Positions 4,232 to 51,570 of a stretch of DNA of 64,000 bases are shown here, piece after piece. A program made the translations under genes and the position numbers. Each line of letters begins with the position of its first letter. Position 1 is the first letter of the stretch. The stretch comes from an uncultured Holophagales bacterium. Its GTDB lineage: Bacteria; Acidobacteriota; Thermoanaerobaculia; Multivoradales; UBA5704. Below the pieces are notes generated by a model. That model searched no databases, was not told the DNA's origin, and saw nothing but the letters and a program-made list of their open reading frames with translations. The DNA lies in the NCBI GenBank assembly GCA_963842525.1, contig CAWJGT010000034.1, positions 1-64,000 on the forward strand, in the 5' to 3' direction.

Positions 4232-4386
4232 GGTTTCCCATGCCATCTCCAGGAGGGGGCGCCGTTTGTCCCCTCCCGTCTTTTCCTCTATCCTGTCCCC
4301 AGCTCTGTTGCGTTCTTTTTCACATTGGCGTAGAGTAATAAGCTATACACCCCTGGCGCAGTCGGTCACTCCCGAGGGGGGAGATC

Positions 4387-4737
4387 ATGCAGCAGCGTCC
4401 TCTCAACACGACCCGCCGTTTTCCCCGTGCCTTTTCCACGCACCCGATCCGTGTCCGCGTGCTGAGCGAGCGGCGTCCCGACCAGCTCACCCAGACCCGG
4501 ATCATCAGCCCGGGCGGCTGCATGCTGGTCAGCGAGAGCTCCATCGGTTTCGGCTCTCTGCTGGAGCTGATGATCACGCTCGACGGCCGCCTGCTGCGCG
4601 CTGACGGCCGGGTCGCCTGGGAAAGGCGGACGGGCCAGGCCGAGCACGAGGTCGGTGTCGAGTTCCTGCGCATCAACCGCCGGGATCGCGACGTCCTGGC
4701 GCAGCTCGTCGCCACCAAGCTCAGCCCGGCAGCTTAG
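4387..4737 (+). CDS. PilZ domain protein (c-di-GMP-binding fold)
   Basis: RRFPR motif, ISPGG (degenerate D/NxSxxG), GRVAW, VGVEF. Confidence 0.75.
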   Translation: MQQRPLNTTRRFPRAFSTHPIRVRVLSERRPDQLTQTRIISPGGCMLVSESSIGFGSLLELMITLDGRLLRADGRVAWERRTGQAEHEVGVEFLRINRRDRDVLAQLVATKLSPAA

Positions 4738-4834
4738 GGCGTCCCCGCAGACCTCACGTTGATAAGATGCCCCCCGTGCCGGGCGCAAGGGGCCAGGGCG
4801 GGTGCCCGGTCGTCCTCCTCCGGCGGAGGGGTCC

Positions 4835-5590
4835 ATGGCCGATTTCGAGCGATACATCGGGGTCCGCTACTCGGGGCGCAGGGAGCCGGGTGAGCGGATC
4901 AAGCTGATCAAGGTCTTCTCGGCGCGCGAGGACCACGAGCCCTATCTGGAGCCGAACCCTGCGGATGGAGACGGCCGCTGGAGCCGCCGCGAGCTCGCCG
5001 AATGGCTGCTCGCCGAGCTCGACCAGGACGTGCCGACCGTCGTCGCCCTCGACCACGCCTTCTCGTTCCCGCAGACCTACATGGACCGCAACAGCCTGAA
5101 GAGCTGGGACGAGTTCCTGGACGATTTCGAGGGGCACTGGCCCACGGACCGGTTCAAGGTCCGCGATCTGCTGCCTGGCAATCCCCGTTCGGGCGACCCG
5201 GACGAGCACCGCCTCACAGGCCGCTGGACCGCCTTCCCGCGCAGCGTCTTCGAGTTCGATATCCAGGACAGCCCGGCCAAGGCCTCCCATGCCGGCCTGC
5301 CCTGGCTCGCCTACCTGCGCCGCTCGGGCGACCACGTCCACTTCTGGCCGTTCGACGGCTTCGACGTCCCCAAGGGGCATTCAGTCGTCGCCGAGGTGCG
5401 GCCGGCCCGTTTCCGCCACCGCTATACGAAGGAGGAGCTGAGCAAGGAGGAGCAGGACGCCTACGCCACGTGCGCCTGGCTCCAGGAGCGCGACCGGCTG
5501 GGCCTCCTGCGCCCCTACTTCACGCCCCCTCTTTCCGAGCACGAGCAGGAGCGGGCGCGTCTGGAGGGGTGGATTCTGGGAGTTTCGTAG
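4835..5590 (+). CDS. Hypothetical protein, DUF429/RNase H-like nuclease-related
   Basis: YIGVRYSG, LDHAFSFP, FWPFDG, VVAEVRP, QDAYA pattern; GGAGG RBS. Confidence 0.55.
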   Translation: MADFERYIGVRYSGRREPGERIKLIKVFSAREDHEPYLEPNPADGDGRWSRRELAEWLLAELDQDVPTVVALDHAFSFPQTYMDRNSLKSWDEFLDDFEGHWPTDRFKVRDLLPGNPRSGDPDEHRLTGRWTAFPRSVFEFDIQDSPAKASHAGLPWLAYLRRSGDHVHFWPFDGFDVPKGHSVVAEVRPARFRHRYTKEELSKEEQDAYATCAWLQERDRLGLLRPYFTPPLSEHEQERARLEGWILGVS

Positions 5591-6689
5591 GCAAGCCCCG
5601 CCCGGTGACCAGATAGGTGGCGAAGCTCCCCAGCCAGTGCCCCCCTTCGTAGTGCTCGCCGGTCACGGCCTGCAGGCCGGACTCCCGGTGGGCTGTTGCG
5701 GCGGCACGCAGCGACGGCCGGCGCGGGTCGTCCGCCGGCAGGCCGGCTTCGATCCCTTCCAGCATCCAGGCGCGGCTCAGGTTGAGGCCGTCGAGGTGGG
5801 CAAGCTTGCCGTCCGTGGGATCGGTGACCACGCCGGGCGTGAGCCAGTCCCTCCGGCCGTCGCGCGGGATGTGGGGGAGGAAGGCGCCCAGCCAGGCGGC
5901 GAAGTCCTGCGGGGCCAGGATGCGGCGGACGAGATCGGCCTCTCCCAGGCAGGGAGACAGGAAGTCTTCGCCCGAGGGCTCGTACTCGATCGGACAGTCC
6001 TTGTCCTTCAGATAGAGGTCGCGGACCCGCGATTCGAGGAGCGCGGCGGTCTCGCGGTCGCCGGCCACCCGGGCCCAGTCGAGGATCAGGCCGAAGCCGA
6101 AGGCGGTCTGGTTGTGCTCGCCGATGCGGATCGGGTTGGAGAGCTTGGGGGCCCAGGTGCGGATACGGGCCGCCGAGGCCTTGGCAAGCGGCTGGAGCGC
6201 TGCGGCCCAGCGTTGTGCCTGGGGATCACCCCACTCGCGCAGCTCCGCGTCGAGCTGGAGGAGCCAGGCGAGGCCGTAGGGGCGCTCGAAGGTGTTCCGT
6301 CCCGGGGTCTCCAGATACCTGACCTCGGCCGCGATGTTTTCCGGCGTGAGGCTCCTATCCAGGGCTTCCCGCGCCTTGGCGGCGAACGGTTCGTTCGGAA
6401 ACTGGCGGGCCAGCCGGGCGAGCAGCCAGTGCCCGTGCACGGCCGAGTGCCAGTCGTAGCAGCCGTAGAAAGCCGGCGTCAGCTCATGCGGCGCTTTGAC
6501 GTCCGCTGCGCCGTTCAGCACGTGGGCGATCTTGTTGGGGTACTCCTTGTGCACGCAGGCCAGCGCCAGGCCGGCGAAGCGCGCCGCCGCCGCCGCATCC
6601 ACCCGCGGTGAGGAATTGTCGGCGGCGTGAGCGGAGAAGGGGAGAGCGAAGGCCAGGATCGAGACCAGGACGAGTCGGCGCGCGATCAT
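5520..6689 (-). CDS. DUF2891 family secreted protein
   Basis: Signal peptide; EYPNK, PAFYGCYDWHSAVHGHW, FERPYGLAW, HLDGLNLSRAW, YEGGHWL. Confidence 0.9.
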   Translation of the reverse strand: MIARRLVLVSILAFALPFSAHAADNSSPRVDAAAAARFAGLALACVHKEYPNKIAHVLNGAADVKAPHELTPAFYGCYDWHSAVHGHWLLARLARQFPNEPFAAKAREALDRSLTPENIAAEVRYLETPGRNTFERPYGLAWLLQLDAELREWGDPQAQRWAAALQPLAKASAARIRTWAPKLSNPIRIGEHNQTAFGFGLILDWARVAGDRETAALLESRVRDLYLKDKDCPIEYEPSGEDFLSPCLGEADLVRRILAPQDFAAWLGAFLPHIPRDGRRDWLTPGVVTDPTDGKLAHLDGLNLSRAWMLEGIEAGLPADDPRRPSLRAAATAHRESGLQAVTGEHYEGGHWLGSFATYLVTGRGLPTKLPESTPPDAPAPARARKEGA

Positions 6690-42558: not shown

Positions 42559-43374
42559 TTACACCGGCACGCCGGTCGTCATGCTCAGGTAATAGCCGGT
42601 GATCTCGCCGATGAACGTGCCGACGACCACGACGTAGAGGATGCCCGTGGCAGACTGGTTCGAGCGTTGCCGCGCGCAGTGGAGCGACATGGCGGCGAGC
42701 GGCAGGACGATGGCCAGCCCCCAGAGCAGCCGGAACCAGAAGAAGATCCCCTGCCCCCCGAAGCCGGCGAGGAGGCGCAGGGGATGGGGCTCGACCAGCT
42801 CGTCCACCCCCGCGGCCACGGCCAGGCTGGCTCCCACCGCGGCGAGCCGCAGGAGCGCGGTGCCCAGCAGCACCCAGCAGAAGACCGTGAGATGCCGGAA
42901 GTTGAGCTTCGGAGCCACCAGGTACCAGTGGCCGAGAAGCATGGTAATCAGCGACCACCCGAGCAGGAGGGCCGAGGTCAGCAGGCTTGTGACCGCCAGC
43001 GCCCGCTGGTGGGGGAGCGGGGCGAGCGGCGCGATGAGGTGCGGACCCGCGGTGAGGAGAGTCCCCAGACAGCCGGCCAGCGCGAGCGTCAACGGCCAGC
43101 GGCACAGCCGCCAGCGCTCCCGCCAGATCGCGGCGTAGTAGAGGAGGCTTCCCACCAGCGCGACAGCGAGCGAAGCGGTCCCGAACGCCCGGAGGTCGCC
43201 GAACGGCCGGAATGGGTGGAGCCAGACGACTGCGACGGCGAGCGCGAGCAGGCCCAGAACCACCAGCGCGTTCATCTGGAAGTAGCCGCGCCCGAGGTCG
43301 TCTTCGGGGATCCAGTACAGGGTCGACAGCGAGCCCACGCAGAGGGCCAGGAGGAACAGCAGGAAGATACCCAT
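42559..43374 (-). CDS. Conserved hypothetical polytopic membrane protein
   Basis: About 8 TM segments; MLLGHWYL..P and NQSATGILY motifs. Confidence 0.75.
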   Translation of the reverse strand: MGIFLLFLLALCVGSLSTLYWIPEDDLGRGYFQMNALVVLGLLALAVAVVWLHPFRPFGDLRAFGTASLAVALVGSLLYYAAIWRERWRLCRWPLTLALAGCLGTLLTAGPHLIAPLAPLPHQRALAVTSLLTSALLLGWSLITMLLGHWYLVAPKLNFRHLTVFCWVLLGTALLRLAAVGASLAVAAGVDELVEPHPLRLLAGFGGQGIFFWFRLLWGLAIVLPLAAMSLHCARQRSNQSATGILYVVVVGTFIGEITGYYLSMTTGVPV

Positions 43375-43486
43375 GGGGGGTGCAATCTTAGCAGCTCGAC
43401 CGGCGTTACGCGGGATGAGGGAAAACAAGCCTCCGCTTCGTGTTTTCCACATCATGCGAGCCCTGGAACGCAACGCGTCTTTGATC

Positions 43487-43515
43487 TGGACAGGGGGCGA
43501 GCAGGGTGCTAGCCT
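43487..43515 (+). promoter_or_regulatory. Putative promoter of ECF-TPR module 1
   Basis: TGGACA-N17-TAGCCT with extended -10; paralleled at 45906-45934. Confidence 0.5.
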
Positions 43516-43546
43516 ACCCGGAGTCAGCGGACGACATCTCGGCGAT

Positions 43547-44095
43547 ATGGCAACTTTGGATCATCCTGAACTGCGGGAATCGCTCAACAATCTACTGAAG
43601 ACTTCCCGTCCCAGGCTGGAACGGGTTCTCAGGAACTTCGAGGTGCCTCCGGAAGATGCAGAAGACATCCTCCAGGATGCGCAGTTGACCCTGCTGTACA
43701 AGTGGGACAAGGTGCGCAGCCCCGAGAGCTGGCTGGTCGGGACGGTCAAGAAGAAGTGCATCATGTACTGGCGCAAGCGCCGGGGCAGCCTCTGCGAGGC
43801 TGTGGACACGGCCATCCTCGACCTGCTCGCCATGCCCCAGGCGCCCGACCAGGAGAAGACCGAGCTGACCTGCGACCTGAACCGGGTGCTGTCGAAGCTG
43901 TCGTCGCGGTGCCGTTCCCTCCTGAAGCTCCGGTATGGGCTGGGATACGGCCCGACCGAAGTGGCGGAGCAGATGGGATACCAGACCTCCAGCATCCGCA
44001 AGGTCACCAACCGCTGCCTGGCAGCCCTGACCCGCCAGCTCCTGGCCGTCGGATTCCGGGGTGAGCCAGAGGAAAAGCCCGAAAAAGATGCGTGA
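43547..44095 (+). CDS. ECF-type sigma factor (module 1)
   Basis: PPEDAEDILQD, WLVGTV, LSSRCRSLLKLRY..G.GPTEVAEQMG. Confidence 0.88.
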   Translation: MATLDHPELRESLNNLLKTSRPRLERVLRNFEVPPEDAEDILQDAQLTLLYKWDKVRSPESWLVGTVKKKCIMYWRKRRGSLCEAVDTAILDLLAMPQAPDQEKTELTCDLNRVLSKLSSRCRSLLKLRYGLGYGPTEVAEQMGYQTSSIRKVTNRCLAALTRQLLAVGFRGEPEEKPEKDA

Positions 44096-45434
44096 GCCGC
44101 ACCCGATGCACCCGATGCACCCGAAGACCGCCAAGCTGCTCGAGCTCGGCCAGGGGCGTGTATCGCGCCGCCAGGCCCGCAGGATCGTGCGCCACCTCCT
44201 CGCCGGCTGCGAAGCCTGCAGCGAATTCCTCGCCCGCATCCTGCCGGTCTCCAATCCTGCCGGAACCGATTATGCCCAGGCTTTCGAAGCCGCGCAGCGC
44301 AACGTTTCGGCGCGGGCCGCAGCGATGGCCGCGGAGCGCGCCGAAGCCCGCGAGCTGCTGCGCGAGCTCGCCGTCCAGCCGCTCTACCGCCAGCGGATCC
44401 TGGTGACCGATCAGCCACGGTTCCAGACCTGGGGGCTGTGCGAGCTGCTCCTGGAGGCCTCCCGCGAGTGGGGATTCCAGGACCCCGGCCGCGCCCTGGA
44501 GACGGCCCGTCTCGGGACCAAGCTGGCCGACCGGCTCGACCACGAGACCTATGGCGAGGCCCGGGTGAACGACATGCGCGCTCGCGCCGGGGCCATCCTG
44601 GCCAATGGCGAGCGGATCCTCTGCGACTTCCGGGCGGCGGAGAAGAGCTTCGCGAAGGCCGAGGGCCTGCTGAAGAGTGGCACGGGCGACCCCTTGGAGC
44701 GCGCCGGCCTGCTCCTCCTCAAGGCCTCCCTGTACGGCCATCGGCATCGCTTCAAGGAGGCCTTCCGCCTGCTGGACCGCGTGGTCCTCACCGCCCGCCG
44801 CTGCAACGATCTCCACCTGTGCGGCAAGGCCCTGATCACCAAGGGCTTCCTCGCCGGGATGGATCACGAGCCCGAGCTGTCCATCCGGCTCCTGCAGGAG
44901 GGCGCTCCGCTCGTTGATCCGGCGCTGGAGCCGCGGCTCCTGGTCGCCGCCTACCACAACCTCATCCTGGGGCTCAACGAAGCGGGCCGGCCGCAGGATG
45001 CGGGCGGCCTGCTGGAGCAGACGCGCGCTCTGTACGTCCACGTCGGGGACCGCATGAACCTGATCCGGCTCGGCTGGCTGGAGGGCAAGATCGCCCTGGC
45101 GCTCGGCCGCCTCGAAGAGGCGGAGACGCTGTTCCTGGCAACCCGCCGCGAGCTGATCGACCGCGAGCTCGCCTACGACACGGCGCTGCTCTCGCTCGAC
45201 CAGGCGCAGGTCTACGCCCGGCAGCAACGCTGGCCCGAGATGCGGCGCCTCGCCGAAGAGATGCTCCCGATCTTCCAGTCGCGCCAGATCCAGCGCGAGG
45301 TCGTCTCGACCCTCATCGTCTTTCAGCGGGCGGTGGCCCTGGAGAGGGTCACCGTGGGGATGCTCCAGGAGCTGGCCGAGTACCTCGAAGAGAGCCGTAC
45401 CACCCCCGGGCTGCAGCCCCGGGATCCGTTCTGA
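44088..45434 (+). CDS. Zinc-finger anti-sigma-like N-terminus + TPR protein (module 1)
   Basis: HP...RHLLAGCEAC then helical TPR-like repeats; overlaps the ECF stop. Confidence 0.8.
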   Translation: MREPHPMHPMHPKTAKLLELGQGRVSRRQARRIVRHLLAGCEACSEFLARILPVSNPAGTDYAQAFEAAQRNVSARAAAMAAERAEARELLRELAVQPLYRQRILVTDQPRFQTWGLCELLLEASREWGFQDPGRALETARLGTKLADRLDHETYGEARVNDMRARAGAILANGERILCDFRAAEKSFAKAEGLLKSGTGDPLERAGLLLLKASLYGHRHRFKEAFRLLDRVVLTARRCNDLHLCGKALITKGFLAGMDHEPELSIRLLQEGAPLVDPALEPRLLVAAYHNLILGLNEAGRPQDAGGLLEQTRALYVHVGDRMNLIRLGWLEGKIALALGRLEEAETLFLATRRELIDRELAYDTALLSLDQAQVYARQQRWPEMRRLAEEMLPIFQSRQIQREVVSTLIVFQRAVALERVTVGMLQELAEYLEESRTTPGLQPRDPF

Positions 45435-45640
45435 CGGGCGATCCCCGCCGCCCTCCGCAGTCCGCAGTCTTCCACGGGCGAGGGTGATCCCCCGCCCTTC
45501 CCTTGATCTCACGGCGCGAGCGTCCGCGCAAAAATCCTTGTCTCTGGCTCTTCAGCAGCGGCAACCTTACCTTGGAGCCAGTGTGCTCAACCGCCCCGCG
45601 GTCCGCCACCGCGGAAGGCAGCTTGAAAAGGAGAAGCTTC

Positions 45641-45853
45641 ATGTCCCAGCCCTCAGCTCGCCGGTTTGCCGCGGTGCTCTCCCTCGCCGCCGCCCTCTTC
45701 TTCCTTCCGGTGTCGGATTCGCAGGCCGCGCAACGCCGGCCGCGTGGAGAGTCCGACGTTCTGGACCGCGTCGAGATCCGGGTCCACTCGCTCTGGCGCT
45801 CGATCGTCAGCGTCTGGCAGATGGTCGGTGTCCGGATCGACGACAACGGGTAG
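45641..45853 (+). CDS. Small secreted peptide precursor (70 aa) ending VGVRIDDNG
   Basis: AAGGAG RBS; RR + hydrophobic h-region + SQA|A signal peptide; GC-rich third codon positions. Confidence 0.78.
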   Translation: MSQPSARRFAAVLSLAAALFFLPVSDSQAAQRRPRGESDVLDRVEIRVHSLWRSIVSVWQMVGVRIDDNG

Positions 45854-45905
45854 GGCAGGGTCCAGGGCGTAAGGCTCTCTGAAATCCCCGAGGAGGGGCA
45901 GGTGC

Positions 45906-45934
45906 TGGACTTGGGTCCAGAAGGGTGGTAGTGT
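45906..45934 (+). promoter_or_regulatory. Putative promoter of ECF-TPR module 2
   Basis: TGGACT-N17-TAGTGT sharing AGGGTG-S-TAG with module 1. Confidence 0.5.
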
Positions 45935-45963
45935 GTCAGCCGCTGAAGATCCTCCCTCGGAAG

Positions 45964-46503
45964 ATGAGCGCACTGGATCACTCTCAGGTCGAAGCCTCGC
46001 TCGAAGGTTTTCTGAGGAACGTTCGCCCCCGCTTGAAATCGCTGTTCCAGCGCTACAGCATCCCGCCCCAGGACACGGAGGACATCCTCCAGCAGGCCCT
46101 GCTGGCCTTCCTCTACCAGCGCCGGAGCATCCGGGATCCCGAGGCCTGGCTCCTCGGAACCGTGAGGAACAAGTGCCTTCTGTTCTGGAGGAGCCACCGG
46201 CGGCAGCTCTACCAGACCGTGGATGCGGCCGTGCTCGAGTGCATGGCCGCCCCTCTGCCGCCGGAGCAGGAGACCTCGGACCTGCGCCGCGATCTGGCGA
46301 GCGCCCTCGAGGCATTGCCGGAGCGTTGCCGTTCCCTCCTCTGGCTGCGCTACAACTATGGCTACGAGCCGCCCGAAGTTGCCGATCGCCTCGGTTATAG
46401 TCCAAGCAGCATCAGCAAGGTCACCCAGAGATGTCTCGCCGCCCTGACACGACGTCTGGTGCTCAGGGGTGTTCTACGACGCGGGAAGATGGACCCCACA
46501 TGA
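45964..46503 (+). CDS. ECF-type sigma factor (module 2)
   Basis: Paralog of 43547: RPRL, PPQDTEDILQQ, WLLGTV, LPERCRSLL.LRY. Confidence 0.88.
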   Translation: MSALDHSQVEASLEGFLRNVRPRLKSLFQRYSIPPQDTEDILQQALLAFLYQRRSIRDPEAWLLGTVRNKCLLFWRSHRRQLYQTVDAAVLECMAAPLPPEQETSDLRRDLASALEALPERCRSLLWLRYNYGYEPPEVADRLGYSPSSISKVTQRCLAALTRRLVLRGVLRRGKMDPT

Positions 46504-47870
46504 CACAAGACCATCCGACACAGGAAGTCTTGGAAAGCTTCGTCCACGGCCGGCTTTCGCCTGTCGAGATGAAGCGGGTGTCTTGTCACCTCCTGTCCGG
46601 TTGCACCTACTGCCGGTCGAACGCGTCTCGGTTCTGGGAAGCTGAAGAAGGGGGACGCCGGATACGCGGGAGACCTTCCCGAAGCGAGGGAAGAGCGCGA
46701 CGGCTATGACGAGGTCTTCGATCGCGTCTTCCAGAAGGTGTCCCTCCGGGAGAGCGATCTGAGCCGGGAGCGAGCAGCGGCGCGGCATCTCTACGACGAG
46801 CTCATGCAGCATCCCGTCCCTCGCCAGCATCTCCTCGTCGCCAACAGCACCCGTTTCCGCAACCCGTCGCTCTGCGAGCTCCTGATCGAGGAGAGCCATG
46901 ATGCCGGGTTTCAGGACCCGTCCCGGGCTTTCGAGCTGGCCCGTCTCGGCACTGCGGTCGCCGAGCTGCTGACCAGAGAGACCTGCGGCGGGCTCGGAGT
47001 CTTGAACAGTCTCCGGTGCCGGGTCTGGGCCCAACTGGGTAATGCGCTCCGGATCCAGGGCAAACTCGCCGCGGCGGAAAACGCCTTCGCGACAGTCCAG
47101 GAGTGGATCGAAGAGGAGGAGGTCGACACTCTCGGCACCGCGCGCGTGCTCGACCTCAAGGCCTCCTTGCGCAGAGATCAGAGACGCTTCGCCGAGGCGG
47201 GTGCAGCCTGGATCGGGTCATCTCCATCTATCAGGGTCTCGGGCAATGGAGCCTGCTCGGGCGTACCCTGAAGCAAAAGTCGATGGTCTGTGGTGAGACC
47301 GGGGACCTGGAAGAGGAGATGACGCTCTTGCGGCGAGCTCTCGAGATGCTCGATCCGGAGGAGGAGCCACGGACCTTCCTGGCAGCCCGCCACAACCTCA
47401 TCGTCTCGCTGAACGAGGCCGGCCGCTCCCGCGAAGCCTATGCGCTCCTCTTTCACACCCGCCCCCTCTATCTGAAGATGGGGGACAAGATGACCCTGCT
47501 CCGCCTGCGCTGGCTCGAAGGCGATGTTGCGAGCGGCCTCGGCCGGGTCGAGCAGGCCGAGGTGGCGTTCCGCGAGGTTCGCAAAGCTTTCCTTGACCTC
47601 GGTCTCGATTACGATGCCGCCGTCGCCTCGCTCGACCTCGCAGAGGCTTACGTCCTGCAGGGCAAGACGGCCGAGGTCCGATGTCTGGCGGAGGAGATGC
47701 TCGACGTCTTCCAGGCCCGCGACATCCATCGCGAAGCCTTGGGGGCCCTCGCTGTCTTCTGTGCCGCGGCCCAGATGGAAAACGCAGGGGTCGGCCTGAT
47801 CCAGGAGGTCTCCAGCTTCCTGAAGCGGGTGCGGAACAATCCGGACCTTCACTTCACACCGCCCTCATGA
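46500..47870 (+). CDS. Zinc-finger anti-sigma-like N-terminus + TPR protein (module 2; frameshifts near 46670 and 47205)
   Basis: ATGA overlap with the ECF; DHP...CHLLSGCTYC; LCELL.E.S..GFQDP, EPR..L.A.HNL, RLRWLEG, YD.A..SLD shared with module 1. Confidence 0.8.
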
Positions 47871-47903: not shown

Positions 47904-49149
47904 ATGGCGGATGCTCCCAAGCTCCTGGTCCTCGGATGCGGTTTCGGCGGTTACTCCCTGCTGGCGAACCTGAAGCGCAGGCACTGGAGCATCACCCTCC
48001 TCAGCCCGCGGAACTACTTCCTCTTCACCCCTCTGCTCCCTTCAGCCGTCAGCGGCAGCGTCGAGTTTCGCAGCATCCTGGAACCGGTCCGTCGCCGGCT
48101 CCGCGACGTCCGCCTGATCGAGGGGTACGCCGAGTCGGTGGACTGGGAGACCCGGACCGTCTCCTGCTCGGCCGCCGTCGGAGAAGAACGGTTCAGCCTG
48201 CCGTATGACGTCCTGGTCCTCGCCGTCGGCGCGGCGGTGGGGGACTACGGAGTGCCGGGCGTCGCCGAGCACGCCCTGAAGCTCGCCAGCGTGGAAGACG
48301 CCCAGGCGATCCGGCGGAGGATCCTGGAGCAGATCGCCAGAGCGGAGGTCCCGGCCCTCACCCCGGAGCAGATCCGCGAGCGTCTCACCTTCGTCGTCTG
48401 CGGCGGGGGGCCCACCGGCGTCGAGGCGGCGGCGGAGATCCACGACCTGCTGGACGAGGAGCTGCACCTCCAGCTTCCCCGAGCTCGCCCCGCAGGCCCG
48501 GGTGGTCCTCGTCGAAGCGCTCGAGCGCCTCCTCACCAGCTTCGACGAGGCGCTGGCGCAGTACACCCTGCGTCATTTCGCCCGCGAAGGGATCGAGGTG
48601 CGCACGCGGACCAAGGTGACGGCGATCGAGCCCGGCGCCGTCGTCCTGGAGGATGGAGAGCGCATCCGCTGTGGCCTGGTCCTCTGGGCGGGGGGCAACG
48701 CGCCCGTGCCGTTCCTCCGCGCCCTTGATGGCGTGGAGCTCGACCGCCGCGGCCGGCTGCGGATCGACGACCATCTCCGCATCCCGGGCCGGCTCGACGT
48801 CTATGCTCTCGGCGACTGTGCGGCGGTGGGGGAGCCGCCGCTGCCGGCCACGGCCCAGGTGGCGCAGCAGCAGGGGAAGTACCTCGCCCGCGCCCTCGGT
48901 CATCGGCGCGAGGGACGCGAGGGGCGGCCTGTCGCGCCGTTCCGATTCAAGGCCTCCGGCATGCTGGCCTACATCGGCGGCGGCCAGGCGCTGGCGGATC
49001 TGCCACAGGTCAAATGGAGCGGCCGGGCCGCCTGGCTCTTCTGGCGCTCCGTCTACCTCACCAAGCTGGTCAGCCCGGCCAACAAGATCAAGGTCCTCTT
49101 CGACTGGATGAAGGCGAGGCTCTTCGGCCGCGACATCAGCAGGTTCTGA
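47904..49149 (+). CDS. ndh: Type II NADH dehydrogenase (frameshift near 48470)
   Basis: GCGFGG, FLFTPLLP, GGGPTGVE.AAE, ALGDCA, PATAQVAQQQG. Confidence 0.92.
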
Positions 49150-49155
49150 GATCGC

Positions 49156-51570
49156 TCACGTCTTGACGCCGAGGAAGAGATAGCCGGCGAGGATCGCGAA
49201 GACCGTGCCGGGGCTCCACACCGCGACGGCGGGGGGCAGAGCCCCGGTCTCGCCGAGGGTCGTGAAGAAGGCGTAGACGCCCAGGAACACCATCCCCAAA
49301 ACAACCGAGACGCCGATCCCGTAGAGCGCTCCCTGCCGGCCGAGGCGGAAGGCGAAGGGGAGGCCCACCAGGGCCATGATCAGCGAGACGACGGGAAAGG
49401 CGATCTTGTTGTAGAGCTGCACCTTGAGCTCGGGCACCGGCTGGCCGCTTCCTTCGAGCTCCTGGATGTACTCCCTGAGCTCGCCATAGCGCATCTGCTC
49501 CGGTGGCCGGATCTCGGAGTCGAAGTAGTCCGGCGTCTCCGGATAGCGGACGATCTTCGGCGTCTCGAAGCGCTGGTAGTCCGTCATTTCGACGCCGTCG
49601 ACCGTGCGGGCCCAGCCGTTGGAGAACACCCAGGCATCCCCGATGTACTGCGCTGTCTCGGCAAAGAGCCGGCGGGTCAGACGGTGGCTCGCGTCGAAGT
49701 CGAACACCTGCAGGCGCTGCAGCGTTTGCTGCTTGCGGGTCGTAGTGGATGTAGTTGTAGATGTAGCGCCCCTGCCCGAACAGCCATTGCCGGTCCGCCC
49801 GCCGGTACGTCCGCACCGTCTCCTTGCCGCGGATGCGGTCCTTGAGCTGCGCCACCTTCTCATTGGACGCGGGGAGCACCTTGGTCTCCAGATAGGTGCA
49901 GAAAAGCGACACCAGGAGCGCCGCGGCAAGAGCGGGGACCGCCAGCCGGTAGAGGCTCACTCCCAGCGCCTTGGCGGCGGTGATCTCGTTGGTGCGGGAA
50001 AGGAGGCTGAAGGTCATCAGAGTTGTCACCAGCACCACGACCGGCGCGATCTCGTAGAACATCTGGAGCGAGCCGTACTTGTAGTAGTTGAGGACCAGGA
50101 GCTTGGGCACCTTGTTCTTGAAGATCTCGTCGATCGTCTCGCCCAGGTCGAAGATGATGAAGAGCGAGACGCCCGAAAGCACCACCAGCAGGAAGACCAG
50201 CGAGAACAGGCGCACGACATAGCGGTCCAGCAGGTTGGGGAAGGCGAGGCGCACGCGGGCGATCGGCCGCGGGATGCGGAAGACGAGCTCCTCCGGCGCG
50301 AAGCCCGGGCCTCCCGGGATCGCTGCCGCTCCTCCCGCCGCGCCACGCGCTCGCGGATCCGCTCGCGCCGCTTCTCCCGGCGCATCCCCCGGAGCACCAG
50401 GAGGCCGCCCCAGACGTCCTCCCGCACCCAGCGGTCCAGCCGGCTCATCAGGAGGCTCTTGTCACGATTGCGGCGGATCAGCAGGAAGACGCCGGCGACG
50501 GCAGAGGACAGGTTGGGCGAGCCACATGCCCAGCCAGCCCGGAACGCGGCCGAAGCGCGCCGCCTCCTCGCCGTTGTTGAGCAGCAGGTAGTAGACGATG
50601 AGCACGCCGATCGAAAGGGCGAACCCCGAGGTCTTGCCACCGCGCTTGTTGTTGATCCCGAGGGGCAGGGCGAACAGGCCGAAGACCATGCAGGCGACCG
50701 GGATCGAGAACTTCTTGTGGATCTCGACCTCGGCCAGGTTGCGCTGCTCGTCCGAGGCGGTCGGGTCGTGCTGGAGCTCGCGCAGCTCCTTGAGCGTCAG
50801 CTCCCGGACGCCTTTCGAGACCGAGATCTTGGCCTTCTGCTCGCTGGTGAACTGGTCCTCCAGGACAAGGTCGAGCTCGCGGTGCCGGCTGATCTCGTAG
50901 CGGTCCGGGGCGTTCAGGTCCACCTTGTGGCGGGCGGCGTTGAACAGCCGGAGGACAACCTTCTCGCCGGTCGGGTCGACGAGCACCTCACCCCAGTCGG
51001 CGATGGTGACCTGGCTGGTCGGCTCGCGGACTCGGCGAGGAAGACCCCCTTCCAGCGCTTCTCGCCCGGCGGCACCTCGAAGACGTAGACCACCTTGCCC
51101 TCCCATTCCTCGTAGAAGACCCGCGGCTGCGACCTGCTGCGAGACTGCTCTGGGTGAGGATCTCGAGCCGGAGCTGCTGGAGGGACTGGTTGCCCCACGG
51201 CAGCGCGTAGACCATCAGCACGATGTTGAGCAGCCGTGAAGAGGGCCGAAAGCAGCAGGATGGGGCGGTAGAGGGTGAGGAGGCTGATGCCGCTGGCCCG
51301 CATGGCAATCAGCTCGCTGTCGGACGACAGCCGGCCCACGGCGATCAGGATGCCGAACAGGAGCGACATCGGCAGCGTGAGGACGACGATGTTCGGCAGG
51401 GTCAGCACCAGCAGCTCGCCGACGATCGAGGCCGGCAGCCCGCGGCGGATGATCATCTCCGCGGACTGGAACAGGAACCGGAGGAGCAGGAGGAAGGTAT
51501 AGACTAGGAACCCGAGCCCGAGCGGGCCCAGGATCTCCGTGAGGATGTAGCGATCGAGACGCTTCAGCAC
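49156..51570 (-). CDS. Fused LptF/LptG LPS export permease (frameshifts)
   Basis: Two LptF/G halves: LDRYIL.E...RLSSDSELIAMRASG and LDRYV...LSRTNEITAAKALG. Confidence 0.88.

Follow-up and report, generated by a model that had tools for sequence, protein, structure and literature searches.

What does a 70-residue protein do between genes for sigma factors and tetratricopeptide repeat (TPR) proteins? Its gene occupies positions 45641–45853 of a 64,000-nucleotide stretch of DNA (the window) from an uncultured Holophagales bacterium (assembly GCA_963842525.1, contig CAWJGT010000034.1). An earlier note, made from the letters of the window, had read the product as a precursor from which a C-terminal peptide is released. 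By gene order and domain content, a conserved three-gene unit starts with the peptide gene, which is followed by the gene of an extracytoplasmic function (ECF)-type sigma factor and that of a putative soluble anti-sigma factor. We propose that the unit acts as a sigma/anti-sigma switch gated by the peptide and following the logic of RRNPP quorum sensing, a reading to which we give about even chances. The linkage to the downstream sigma and TPR genes, the anti-sigma domain, and the recognition of the D-D-N-G tail as a variant of a D-P-x-G motif go beyond the earlier note.

The peptide gene and its three-gene unit

The locus comprises the following features:

43547–44095, plus strand: paralogous ECF-type sigma factor, sigma1 (Sigma70_r2, 2e-10; TIGR02937, 61.8 bits; start taken from the ortholog in the related genome G004)
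44106–45434, plus strand: TPR1, a zinc-binding anti-sigma (ZAS)-type domain followed by TPR (TPR_12; 442 aa in its database form)
45539–45569, plus strand: conserved upstream block TGTCTC-N17-CAACCTTA, candidate promoter of the unit (alignment of five regions; putative function)
45628–45633, plus strand: ribosome-binding site AAGGAG, read directly, 7 nt 5′ of the ATG
45641–45853, plus strand: gene of the putative exported pro-peptide, 70 aa (open reading frame and translation, stop codon included)
45641–45727, plus strand: signal-peptide-like N-terminus, residues 1–29, ending in SDSQA before the next A (by inspection)
45761–45823, plus strand: amphipathic Trp helix region, L41–M61, with W52 and W59 (gapless alignment to the family consensus L-x3-W-x2-L-x3-W-x3-G)
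45824–45850, plus strand: tail V-G-V-R-I-D-D-N-G, putative mature ligand (conservation and complex prediction for orthologs)
45964–46503, plus strand: ECF-type sigma factor, sigma2 (Sigma70_r2, 4e-9; Sigma70_r4_2, 1.4e-7), 110 nt downstream of the peptide gene
46500–47870, plus strand: TPR2, a ZAS-type anti-sigma domain followed by TPR (tblastn, TPR_12, N-terminus H..HLLSGCTYC; in three frames)

The open reading frame (ORF) at 45641–45853 is a real gene. Its 70-aa translation (MSQPSARRF...VGVRIDDNG, then stop) was exactly as the earlier note had read it, and AAGGAG lies 7 nt before the ATG. The ATG was taken as the start because a TTG six codons 5′ would put AAGGAG inside the gene. The GC contents at the three codon positions were 0.70/0.48/0.86, and those of the adjoining TPR gene were 0.75/0.45/0.90. 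The layout described in the note (signal, basic linker, Trp helix, tail) was also recognised by inspection: two Arg precede a hydrophobic stretch (maximum Kyte-Doolittle value over 12 residues 2.62, from residue 11), and a cleavage-type site, S-Q-A before A, follows residue 29, with the basic linker next. The product would therefore be a pro-peptide exported by the Sec route. No Pfam or NCBIfam family matched the 70-aa peptide. One soil-metagenome contig was identical to 45495–45759 with zero differences.

A search of 5.8 billion proteins gave two metagenome relatives of 70–71 aa (73–74% identity), with the C-termini G-G-R-I-D-D-N-G and G-L-R-W-D-D-N-G. Four more relatives (33–50% identity) were found in three of five same-genus genomes. 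Three of them end in S-R-M-D-D-N-G, A-R-W-D-D-N-G and P-R-M-D-D-N-G, and the fourth, matched at E 2.6e-4, ends in V-R-I-D-P-D-G-N-P. In the seven-row alignment of the mature part, the invariant residues were W, R, D and G only, three of the four in the tail; the Trp is W52, invariant across the seven close relatives. The tail is thus the most conserved part of the peptide, since R, D and G are invariant and six of the seven rows end in R-x-D-D-N-G-stop; elsewhere the genome relatives are 34–49% identical to one another. The ORF was open and co-linear at four loci of the three same-genus genomes. The earlier note had named a lack of conservation of the ORF or its tail in related genomes as evidence against its reading, and both were conserved. 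Metagenome scans for additional orthologs gave nothing, apart from one spurious partial match; in the search for ortholog DNA with the protein as query, a match to an Arthrobacter record was discarded as spurious signal-peptide similarity.

The order peptide, ECF sigma, TPR was found in the window and at four of four relatives' loci. The ATG of TPR2 overlaps the stop codon of sigma2 (ATGA), and no terminator-like site was found between the peptide gene and sigma2. A TPR gene upstream of the peptide gene occurred at only two of the four relatives' loci. We paired the peptide with sigma2 and TPR2 downstream because peptide genes lie upstream of TPR genes genome-wide and the relatives agree. In G004, the entire five-gene locus is repeated with an intact TPR2. 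Another contig carries a second module in which the order is identical and the peptide is of the Cys type. Sigma2 scored 62.5 bits against TIGR02937 (cut-off 42.9), and its start was set at MSALDH by ortholog comparison; none of the named ECF subgroup models reached its own cut-off for sigma2. Gene order and the ATGA overlap suggest that TPR2 may bind and inhibit the co-encoded sigma2. An additional sigma gene precedes the peptide gene in genome G001.

The DPxG family and its TPR partners

Starting from weak matches of the peptide in its own genome, we found a large number of small ORFs that are built alike. This unnamed family, which we define here and refer to by its motif as DPxG, has a signal-like N-terminus, a W-x3-[LIV]-x3-W helix and one to five copies of G-x-x-[ILM]-D-P-x-G. 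Among the small ORFs of the genome, the helix reads [LF]-[LF]-x2-[LI]-W-x2-L-x3-[WF] and the motif, present in one to four copies, G-x-x-[ILMV]-D-P-x-G, often in the form G-C-x-I-D-P-N-G-x-C; the protein often stops directly after the Gly. A regular expression with a crude signal filter gave 67 candidates, eight of which were dropped by eye as chance matches, a glyoxalase-like protein among them. The 9.95 Mb genome (G000) therefore has 59 curated copies, and 58 of the 59 share the signal-like layout. The count includes a few duplicates, because repeats at contig ends were probably assembled twice: identical peptide genes with the same TPR neighbour, each pair probably one repeat, occur at C9:4061–4408 and C18:2594–2941 and at C10:32938–33249 and C8:904–1215.

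The window protein fits the gapless register L-x3-W-x2-L-x3-W-x3-G-x2-[IL]-D-x2-G of 18 paralogs at the positions W, [IL], W, G, [IL], D and G, with Val in place of Cys. On the strength of this register, the genomic context and the same-genus relative with an I-D-P-D-G tail, we regard the window peptide as a diverged member of the DPxG family, though at a score short of significance. Its D-D-N-G tail is a variant of the far commoner D-P-x-G motif.

A 19-row profile of the family matched in all 12 of the other genomes searched from the same taxonomic family and in two of eight genomes from eight other families of the order. Among 150 other genomes across the phylum, with 50 candidates scored per genome, there was no match at E ≤ 1e-6. 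Of 1.84 billion cluster representatives, 715 matched the profile at E ≤ 1e-3, of which 99 reached E ≤ 1e-10. The 150 representatives among the matches listed were all 65–170 aa long, with the module about 30–70 residues in, and ten that were inspected had the identical plan. Pfam scans of 12 further members and NCBIfam scans of four members gave no family (0/12 and 0/4).

A tblastn search with the window TPR proteins located 95 TPR-paralog loci in the genome, and 56 of the 59 peptide genes lay within 1 kb of one. Of these 56, 39 were upstream on the same strand, 12 were convergent and five had another orientation. Random placement paired 1.8 genes on average and seven at most (2000 trials). 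Conversely, 52 of the 95 TPR loci had a family peptide gene. The window peptide falls under the 1 kb rule on both sides, as TPR1 ends 206 nt upstream and TPR2 starts 647 nt downstream. In nine other genomes, nine loci were chosen by peptide match alone, and all nine had a TPR homolog. The earlier note had mentioned small proteins ending in IDPNG or DPDG beside TPR genes of Thermoanaerobaculia-like genomes; these counts bear this out, and the TPR homologs in public databases are labelled Thermoanaerobaculia.

The neighbourhood was then compared all-against-all, using the 548 ORFs that passed a filter on GC content at third codon positions and lay within 6 kb of the 59 peptide genes. The sole recurring neighbour family was TPR (46 members at 43 loci), and the next family had six members. 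No maturase, protease, peptidase, transporter, exporter or immunity-like membrane family recurred within 6 kb of the 59 genes. Since only the TPR family recurs, the unit is peptide plus TPR protein without a maturase, protease or exporter. Sigma loci are few by comparison (7 versus 95 TPR loci), and most TPR paralogs have no adjoining sigma gene.

One array deserves description beside these counts. At C9:424000–438100 of G000, at least seven peptide genes alternate with TPR genes on one strand. Their peptides have a single motif, G-[PS]-C-I-D-P-x-G-x-x-x-P-x-C, and two of the upstream regions have TGTCCCGCTTT-N-CACACTCT in common.

TPR proteins as putative receptors

The first 45 residues of the TPR proteins carry a His/Cys motif. 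H5, P6, H30, L31, C35 and C38 were invariant in eight N-termini, and H5, H30, C35 and C38 were nearly invariant in 44 homologs. The best five PDB matches of the N-terminal profile were DdvA (8rlz, E 1.7e-4; 8rot, 1.8e-3), ChrR (0.013 and 0.014) and chain B of 3hug (0.062), which we take to be RslA of M. tuberculosis. Because this profile matches anti-sigma factors, TPR1 and TPR2 are read as soluble anti-sigma-type proteins with a TPR sensor. Pfam zf-HC2 gave no match to the window TPR proteins at E ≤ 0.1, and no membrane-type segment or signal was found in the TPR protein. The His/Cys motif was present in 16 of 38 TPR paralog ORFs. The model of TPR1 is an all-helical superhelix (per-residue confidence, pLDDT, 84). 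Its closest folds are TPR-peptide complexes, namely LGN/Pins (E 3.8e-6) and kinesin light chain, with RapF and the Rap-peptide complex 4gyo at ranks 44–45.

The complex of peptide and TPR protein was predicted with the intact pair of G004, that is, TPR2 of 457 aa (32-row alignment) and the mature peptide of 43 aa (7-row alignment). The three runs scored 0.74/0.73/0.74, and the best of three controls scored 0.01. A benchmark of the score had put 116 of 157 solved complexes at this mark or above, against 2 of 215 mismatched pairs; own alignments were used, so these counts are rough. Contact agreement in the G004 runs was at least 28% and the partner pLDDT at least 45. The confident peptide contacts were F32 and residues 35–43, which spell V-G-S-R-M-D-D-N-G. 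On the TPR side, contacts recur every 36–40 residues or so along the groove, and ten of them (F135, N180, S222, K/R255, H298, N299, R335, W338, D372 and D379) are common to the clades of TPR1 and TPR2 despite their identity of only about 38%. The tail of the peptide is thus predicted to sit in the TPR groove, and the predicted interface does not include the conserved amphipathic Trp helix. The earlier note had suggested the release of a C-terminal G-x-x-I-D-x-N-G peptide; that this piece is the active part agrees with a model in which exactly the last nine residues would contact the groove.

Other TPR paralogs have a different N-terminus. An XRE-type helix-turn-helix (HTH) domain, HTH_3, stood in place of the His/Cys motif in two of ten scanned paralogs, and tblastn found at least six such genes in G000:

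C7:92850–94388 (L032): HTH_3-TPR paralog
C9:1870552–1872000 (L033): HTH_3-TPR paralog
C1:45550: HTH_3-TPR paralog
C6:178224: HTH_3-TPR paralog
C25:404848: HTH_3-TPR paralog
C32:23476: HTH_3-TPR paralog

Most of these genes are transcribed away from a neighbouring peptide gene of the Cys type (G-C-x-[ILV]-D-P-x-G-x-C repeats), and a second TPR gene often converges from the opposite side. The HTH-TPR form had 421 homologs at E ≤ 1e-20; most among the matches listed were PF01381 plus TPR, and they were from Thermoanaerobaculia where named. An HTH-plus-TPR receptor beside a small exported-peptide gene is the RRNPP layout.

The likeness to the RRNPP(A) systems (Rap-Phr, NprR-NprX, PlcR-PapR, Rgg-SHP, AimR-AimP) covers several features. 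In both, the gene of a small pro-peptide (here putatively exported) stands beside the gene of a cytoplasmic TPR receptor, the active part is at the C-terminus of the pro-peptide (here by prediction), and a genome holds many paralogous pairs. The XRE-type HTH plus TPR layout recurs in other paralogs of this genome, and Rap structures are among the fold matches. Some RRNPP propeptides contain tandem pheromone copies (PMC11343458), and the multi-motif paralogs here are alike in this respect. The differences are equally clear. The host belongs to the Acidobacteriota (Thermoanaerobaculia by homolog labels) and has lipopolysaccharide (LPS)-export genes, whereas RRNPP is presented as a Gram-positive or Firmicutes system in PMC10075063 and PMC9765709. 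In TPR1 and TPR2 of the window, an anti-sigma domain would stand as output in place of the HTH or Rap-type bundle, and the scale, with 95 TPR loci in one genome, is far larger. To our knowledge, the D-P-x-G motif is unlike any known RRNPP pheromone.

Compared with the ZAS anti-sigma factors (RsrA, ChrR, RslA and Myxococcus DdvA), the TPR proteins share the N-terminal helix pair, the His ... His-x-Cys-x2-Cys type of arrangement and the position of the gene directly after, and overlapping, an ECF sigma gene. They differ in spacing, as the classic ZAS motif is H-x3-C-x2-C and most copies here have H-x4-C-x2-C. They also differ in the sensor: in place of a redox-active zinc site, a cupin or a CHAT domain, there is a TPR superhelix with a predicted peptide ligand. 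TPR domains are coupled to ECF sigma control in ECF42, through a C-terminal TPR extension, and in ECF267, through a TPR-bearing FecR-like anti-sigma factor (PMC7826278). In the present unit, by contrast, the TPR is on a separate soluble ZAS-like anti-sigma protein and an exported-peptide gene heads the unit, an arrangement not mentioned in the tetratricopeptide passages of PMC7826278. Finally, in eukaryotic TPR-peptide complexes (LGN/Pins with NuMA, Frmpd4 or Inscuteable; kinesin light chain with Trp-acidic motifs), the superhelix likewise wraps an extended peptide in its concave groove, and these are the best folds of both models. They are only 13–20% identical, and we claim no evolutionary or functional link, although they may be the reason for the confident complex prediction.

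Our literature searches returned no description of a DPxG peptide family. Neither an RRNPP-type system from Acidobacteriota or another Gram-negative group nor a TPR anti-sigma factor that binds a peptide turned up in them. Signalling by a peptide pheromone and an intracellular TPR receptor counts as a hallmark of the Firmicutes and the phages that infect them. We tentatively suggest, at somewhat below even confidence, that one Thermoanaerobaculia family provides dozens of parallel private channels per genome, each made of an exported D-P-x-G pro-peptide and its own cytoplasmic TPR receptor. The outputs would be of at least three kinds, namely a ZAS anti-sigma domain that controls an ECF sigma factor, as in the window, an XRE-type HTH, and forms that have neither. 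If so, RRNPP-type quorum sensing would have its first superfamily outside Firmicutes, and the same logic would have arisen or survived in a diderm soil phylum scarcely studied at the bench. It would also be a new form of ECF sigma control, with the first anti-sigma factor gated by a self-made, genome-encoded peptide. Two large sets of 'hypothetical' Thermoanaerobaculia proteins would be explained, namely hundreds of TPR proteins and at least 715 small-protein clusters (no Pfam or NCBIfam match in those scanned). The 95 receptor loci and about 60 peptides per genome would offer a natural system for the diversification of signalling specificity.

Proposed gating by a returned peptide and the rival explanations

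In the proposed switch, the precursor would be exported and its tail cleaved off outside the cytoplasm. The released tail would be re-imported and bound by the TPR domain, and binding would alter the hold of the anti-sigma domain on the sigma factor. Sigma-dependent transcription, probably including that of the unit itself, would then track the peptide concentration. The conjectural parts of this scheme are the export and cleavage of the precursor, the return of the tail into the cell and the sign of its effect on sigma; the place of the tail in the groove is predicted. The genome has three genes for Opp/Dpp-type binding proteins (SBP_bac_5); such proteins are necessary and insufficient for re-uptake, and nothing links these three to the peptide. 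Two of the three genes lie a few kb from peptide/TPR loci (C9:403765–404823 near C9:408120–409873; C1:375359–376348 near the TPR locus C1:372271–373192), which may be chance.

Several observations weigh against a peptide-gated switch of this kind. The TPR protein appears to be cytoplasmic and the peptide to leave the cell, so the signal would need two passages across both membranes; the presence of LptF and LptG genes presumably means an outer membrane, and our searches found no published case of such a two-membrane peptide return in a diderm. The complex prediction was made with the G004 orthologs in place of the window's own TPR2. The fold of the partner in that prediction is itself uncertain (pLDDT 46–54), and the pass may reflect likeness to known structures, because solved TPR-peptide complexes exist. 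No RRNPP chain was among the PDB sequence matches of TPR1 or of an HTH-TPR paralog, and Rap folds came only at ranks 44–45 for the TPR1 model and 17 for the HTH-TPR paralog, behind generic TPR. Homology of the HTH-TPR paralogs to RRNPP receptors gained no support, as their PDB sequence and fold matches were generic TPR and XRE, with Rap at rank 17. The receptors may work like those of RRNPP by analogy, and they are not demonstrable members by sequence or fold. In the subfamily of the window peptide, the Pro of D-P-x-G is replaced by Asp. A profile of the other 58 family members scored the window protein at 9.8 bits (E = 11 among 133,640 frames) and was dropped as support for membership. TPR2 of the window is in three frames, with tblastn pieces at 46494–46634, 46675–47199 and 47208–47864. 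The downstream TPR ORFs of G001 and G002, as read, are without the anti-sigma N-terminus. In these two genomes, the ORFs at 4636–5910 of locus L024 (G001, contig C282) and 4281–5741 of locus L025 (G002, contig C71) align only from about residue 71 of TPR1.

Since return across the outer and inner membranes is the weakest step of the scheme, the main rival is binding before export. The TPR anti-sigma protein would then bind the tail of the unexported precursor, and sigma would report the cytoplasmic load of precursor, as product feedback or export stress, with neither an extracellular signal nor re-uptake. The pairing, gene order, domains and predicted contact of tail and groove are the same under this explanation, no return across two membranes is required, and the genes of an outer-membrane LPS pathway are present. 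Many paralogs, on the other hand, have two to five motif copies separated by linkers, like a multi-copy precursor made for cutting, many end exactly at the motif Gly, and a signal peptide would be odd on a purely cytoplasmic ligand; we consider the explanation unlikely, if worth keeping in view. A secreted effector would shift the function to the outside: a membrane-active amphipathic, bacteriocin-like or surface- or cation-binding peptide merely regulated by the sigma and TPR proteins, with the TPR sensing something else. The conserved Trp helix that is left out of the predicted interface suits such a role. So do the C-x-[IL]-D-P-x-G-x-C loops of many paralogs, which could form stable extracellular disulfide loops, and the large, fast-diverging paralog set, which is also typical of antagonism genes. 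Yet the near one-to-one pairing with soluble TPR proteins (56/59) is unlike that of bacteriocin and immunity genes, no immunity-like membrane protein, exporter or protease recurs nearby, and it is the tail that close relatives conserve and that the prediction docks in a conserved groove. This makes the effector explanation rather improbable in our judgement.

The earlier note had offered a modified product as an alternative, that is, a ribosomally synthesized and post-translationally modified peptide (RiPP) whose D-P-x-G or D-D-N-G core is enzymatically altered (for example, to an Asn-Gly succinimide) or cyclised. Repeated short core motifs after a leader-like region would fit, a terminal Asn-Gly is chemically labile as a matter of general chemistry, and TPR2 of G004 weakly matched the NCBIfam model of a cyclophane-RiPP TPR protein (E 3.8e-4, 18.7 bits). 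That match is far under the cut-off of 1125 and spans TPR repeats only, the leader is a Sec-type signal peptide by inspection, and the 6 kb on either side of the 59 genes hold no recurrent family of maturases, peptidases, proteases or transporters, so the alternative lost ground and now seems very unlikely. Least probable of all, to the point of being nearly negligible, is a chance ORF or pseudogene remnant between genes of a GC-rich genome. Such genomes have many long spurious frames, the adjoining genes have frame breaks, and the E of 11 from the profile built without the window protein points the same way. These arguments are met by the ribosome-binding site and coding-type GC pattern, by the open, co-linear ORF at four loci in three same-genus genomes and in two metagenome proteins, with tail and stop conserved, and by the conserved position before sigma2. 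The peptide-gated switch stays our preferred reading.

The frame breaks extend beyond TPR2, in which the frame changes between 46634 and 46675 and near 47199–47208 and whose G004 ortholog is intact at 457 aa. None of the soil-metagenome contigs compared with the window spans the breaks in TPR2. Several other TPR paralogs of the genome are likewise split in tblastn. Three consecutive housekeeping genes downstream are each broken into two overlapping frames with complementary Pfam halves: NDH-2 (47904–48728 and 48502–49149), LptG (minus strand, 49136–50254 and 49156–49929) and LptF (minus strand, 50462–51106 and 50914–51570). Breaks in three such genes in succession suggest that the assembly contains insertion or deletion errors, more than that the genes are decaying.

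In the conserved block 5′ of the peptide gene, TGTC and G..G.AAC..T (spaced as TGTC-N19-G..G.AAC) were invariant in the window and the four relatives' loci, the relatives having AACTCT. No sigma-70-type promoter was found in 45300–46100. A reading of the block as an ECF-type GGAAC/TCAA promoter was dropped, and the block is kept as a candidate only. Among the upstream regions of the 59 paralogs, the hexamer CACTCT occurred in 15 (1.5 expected) and GTAGGG in 15 (1.8 expected), sometimes as CACTCT-N5-6-GTAGGG; the two could be a family-specific promoter element. A two-block promoter, TGTCC-N16-20-CACTCT, was rejected as too rare for a shared promoter, although somewhat enriched, with at least 10 of 11 matches in 4 of 59 regions and in 9 of 3000 random ones. 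At the far end of the locus, the longest sigma1 frame (part 43373–43546) overlaps a 304-aa membrane-protein-like ORF on the minus strand (42559–43473) without a Pfam match. Sigma1 more likely starts at 43547 with MATLDH, like its counterpart in G004.

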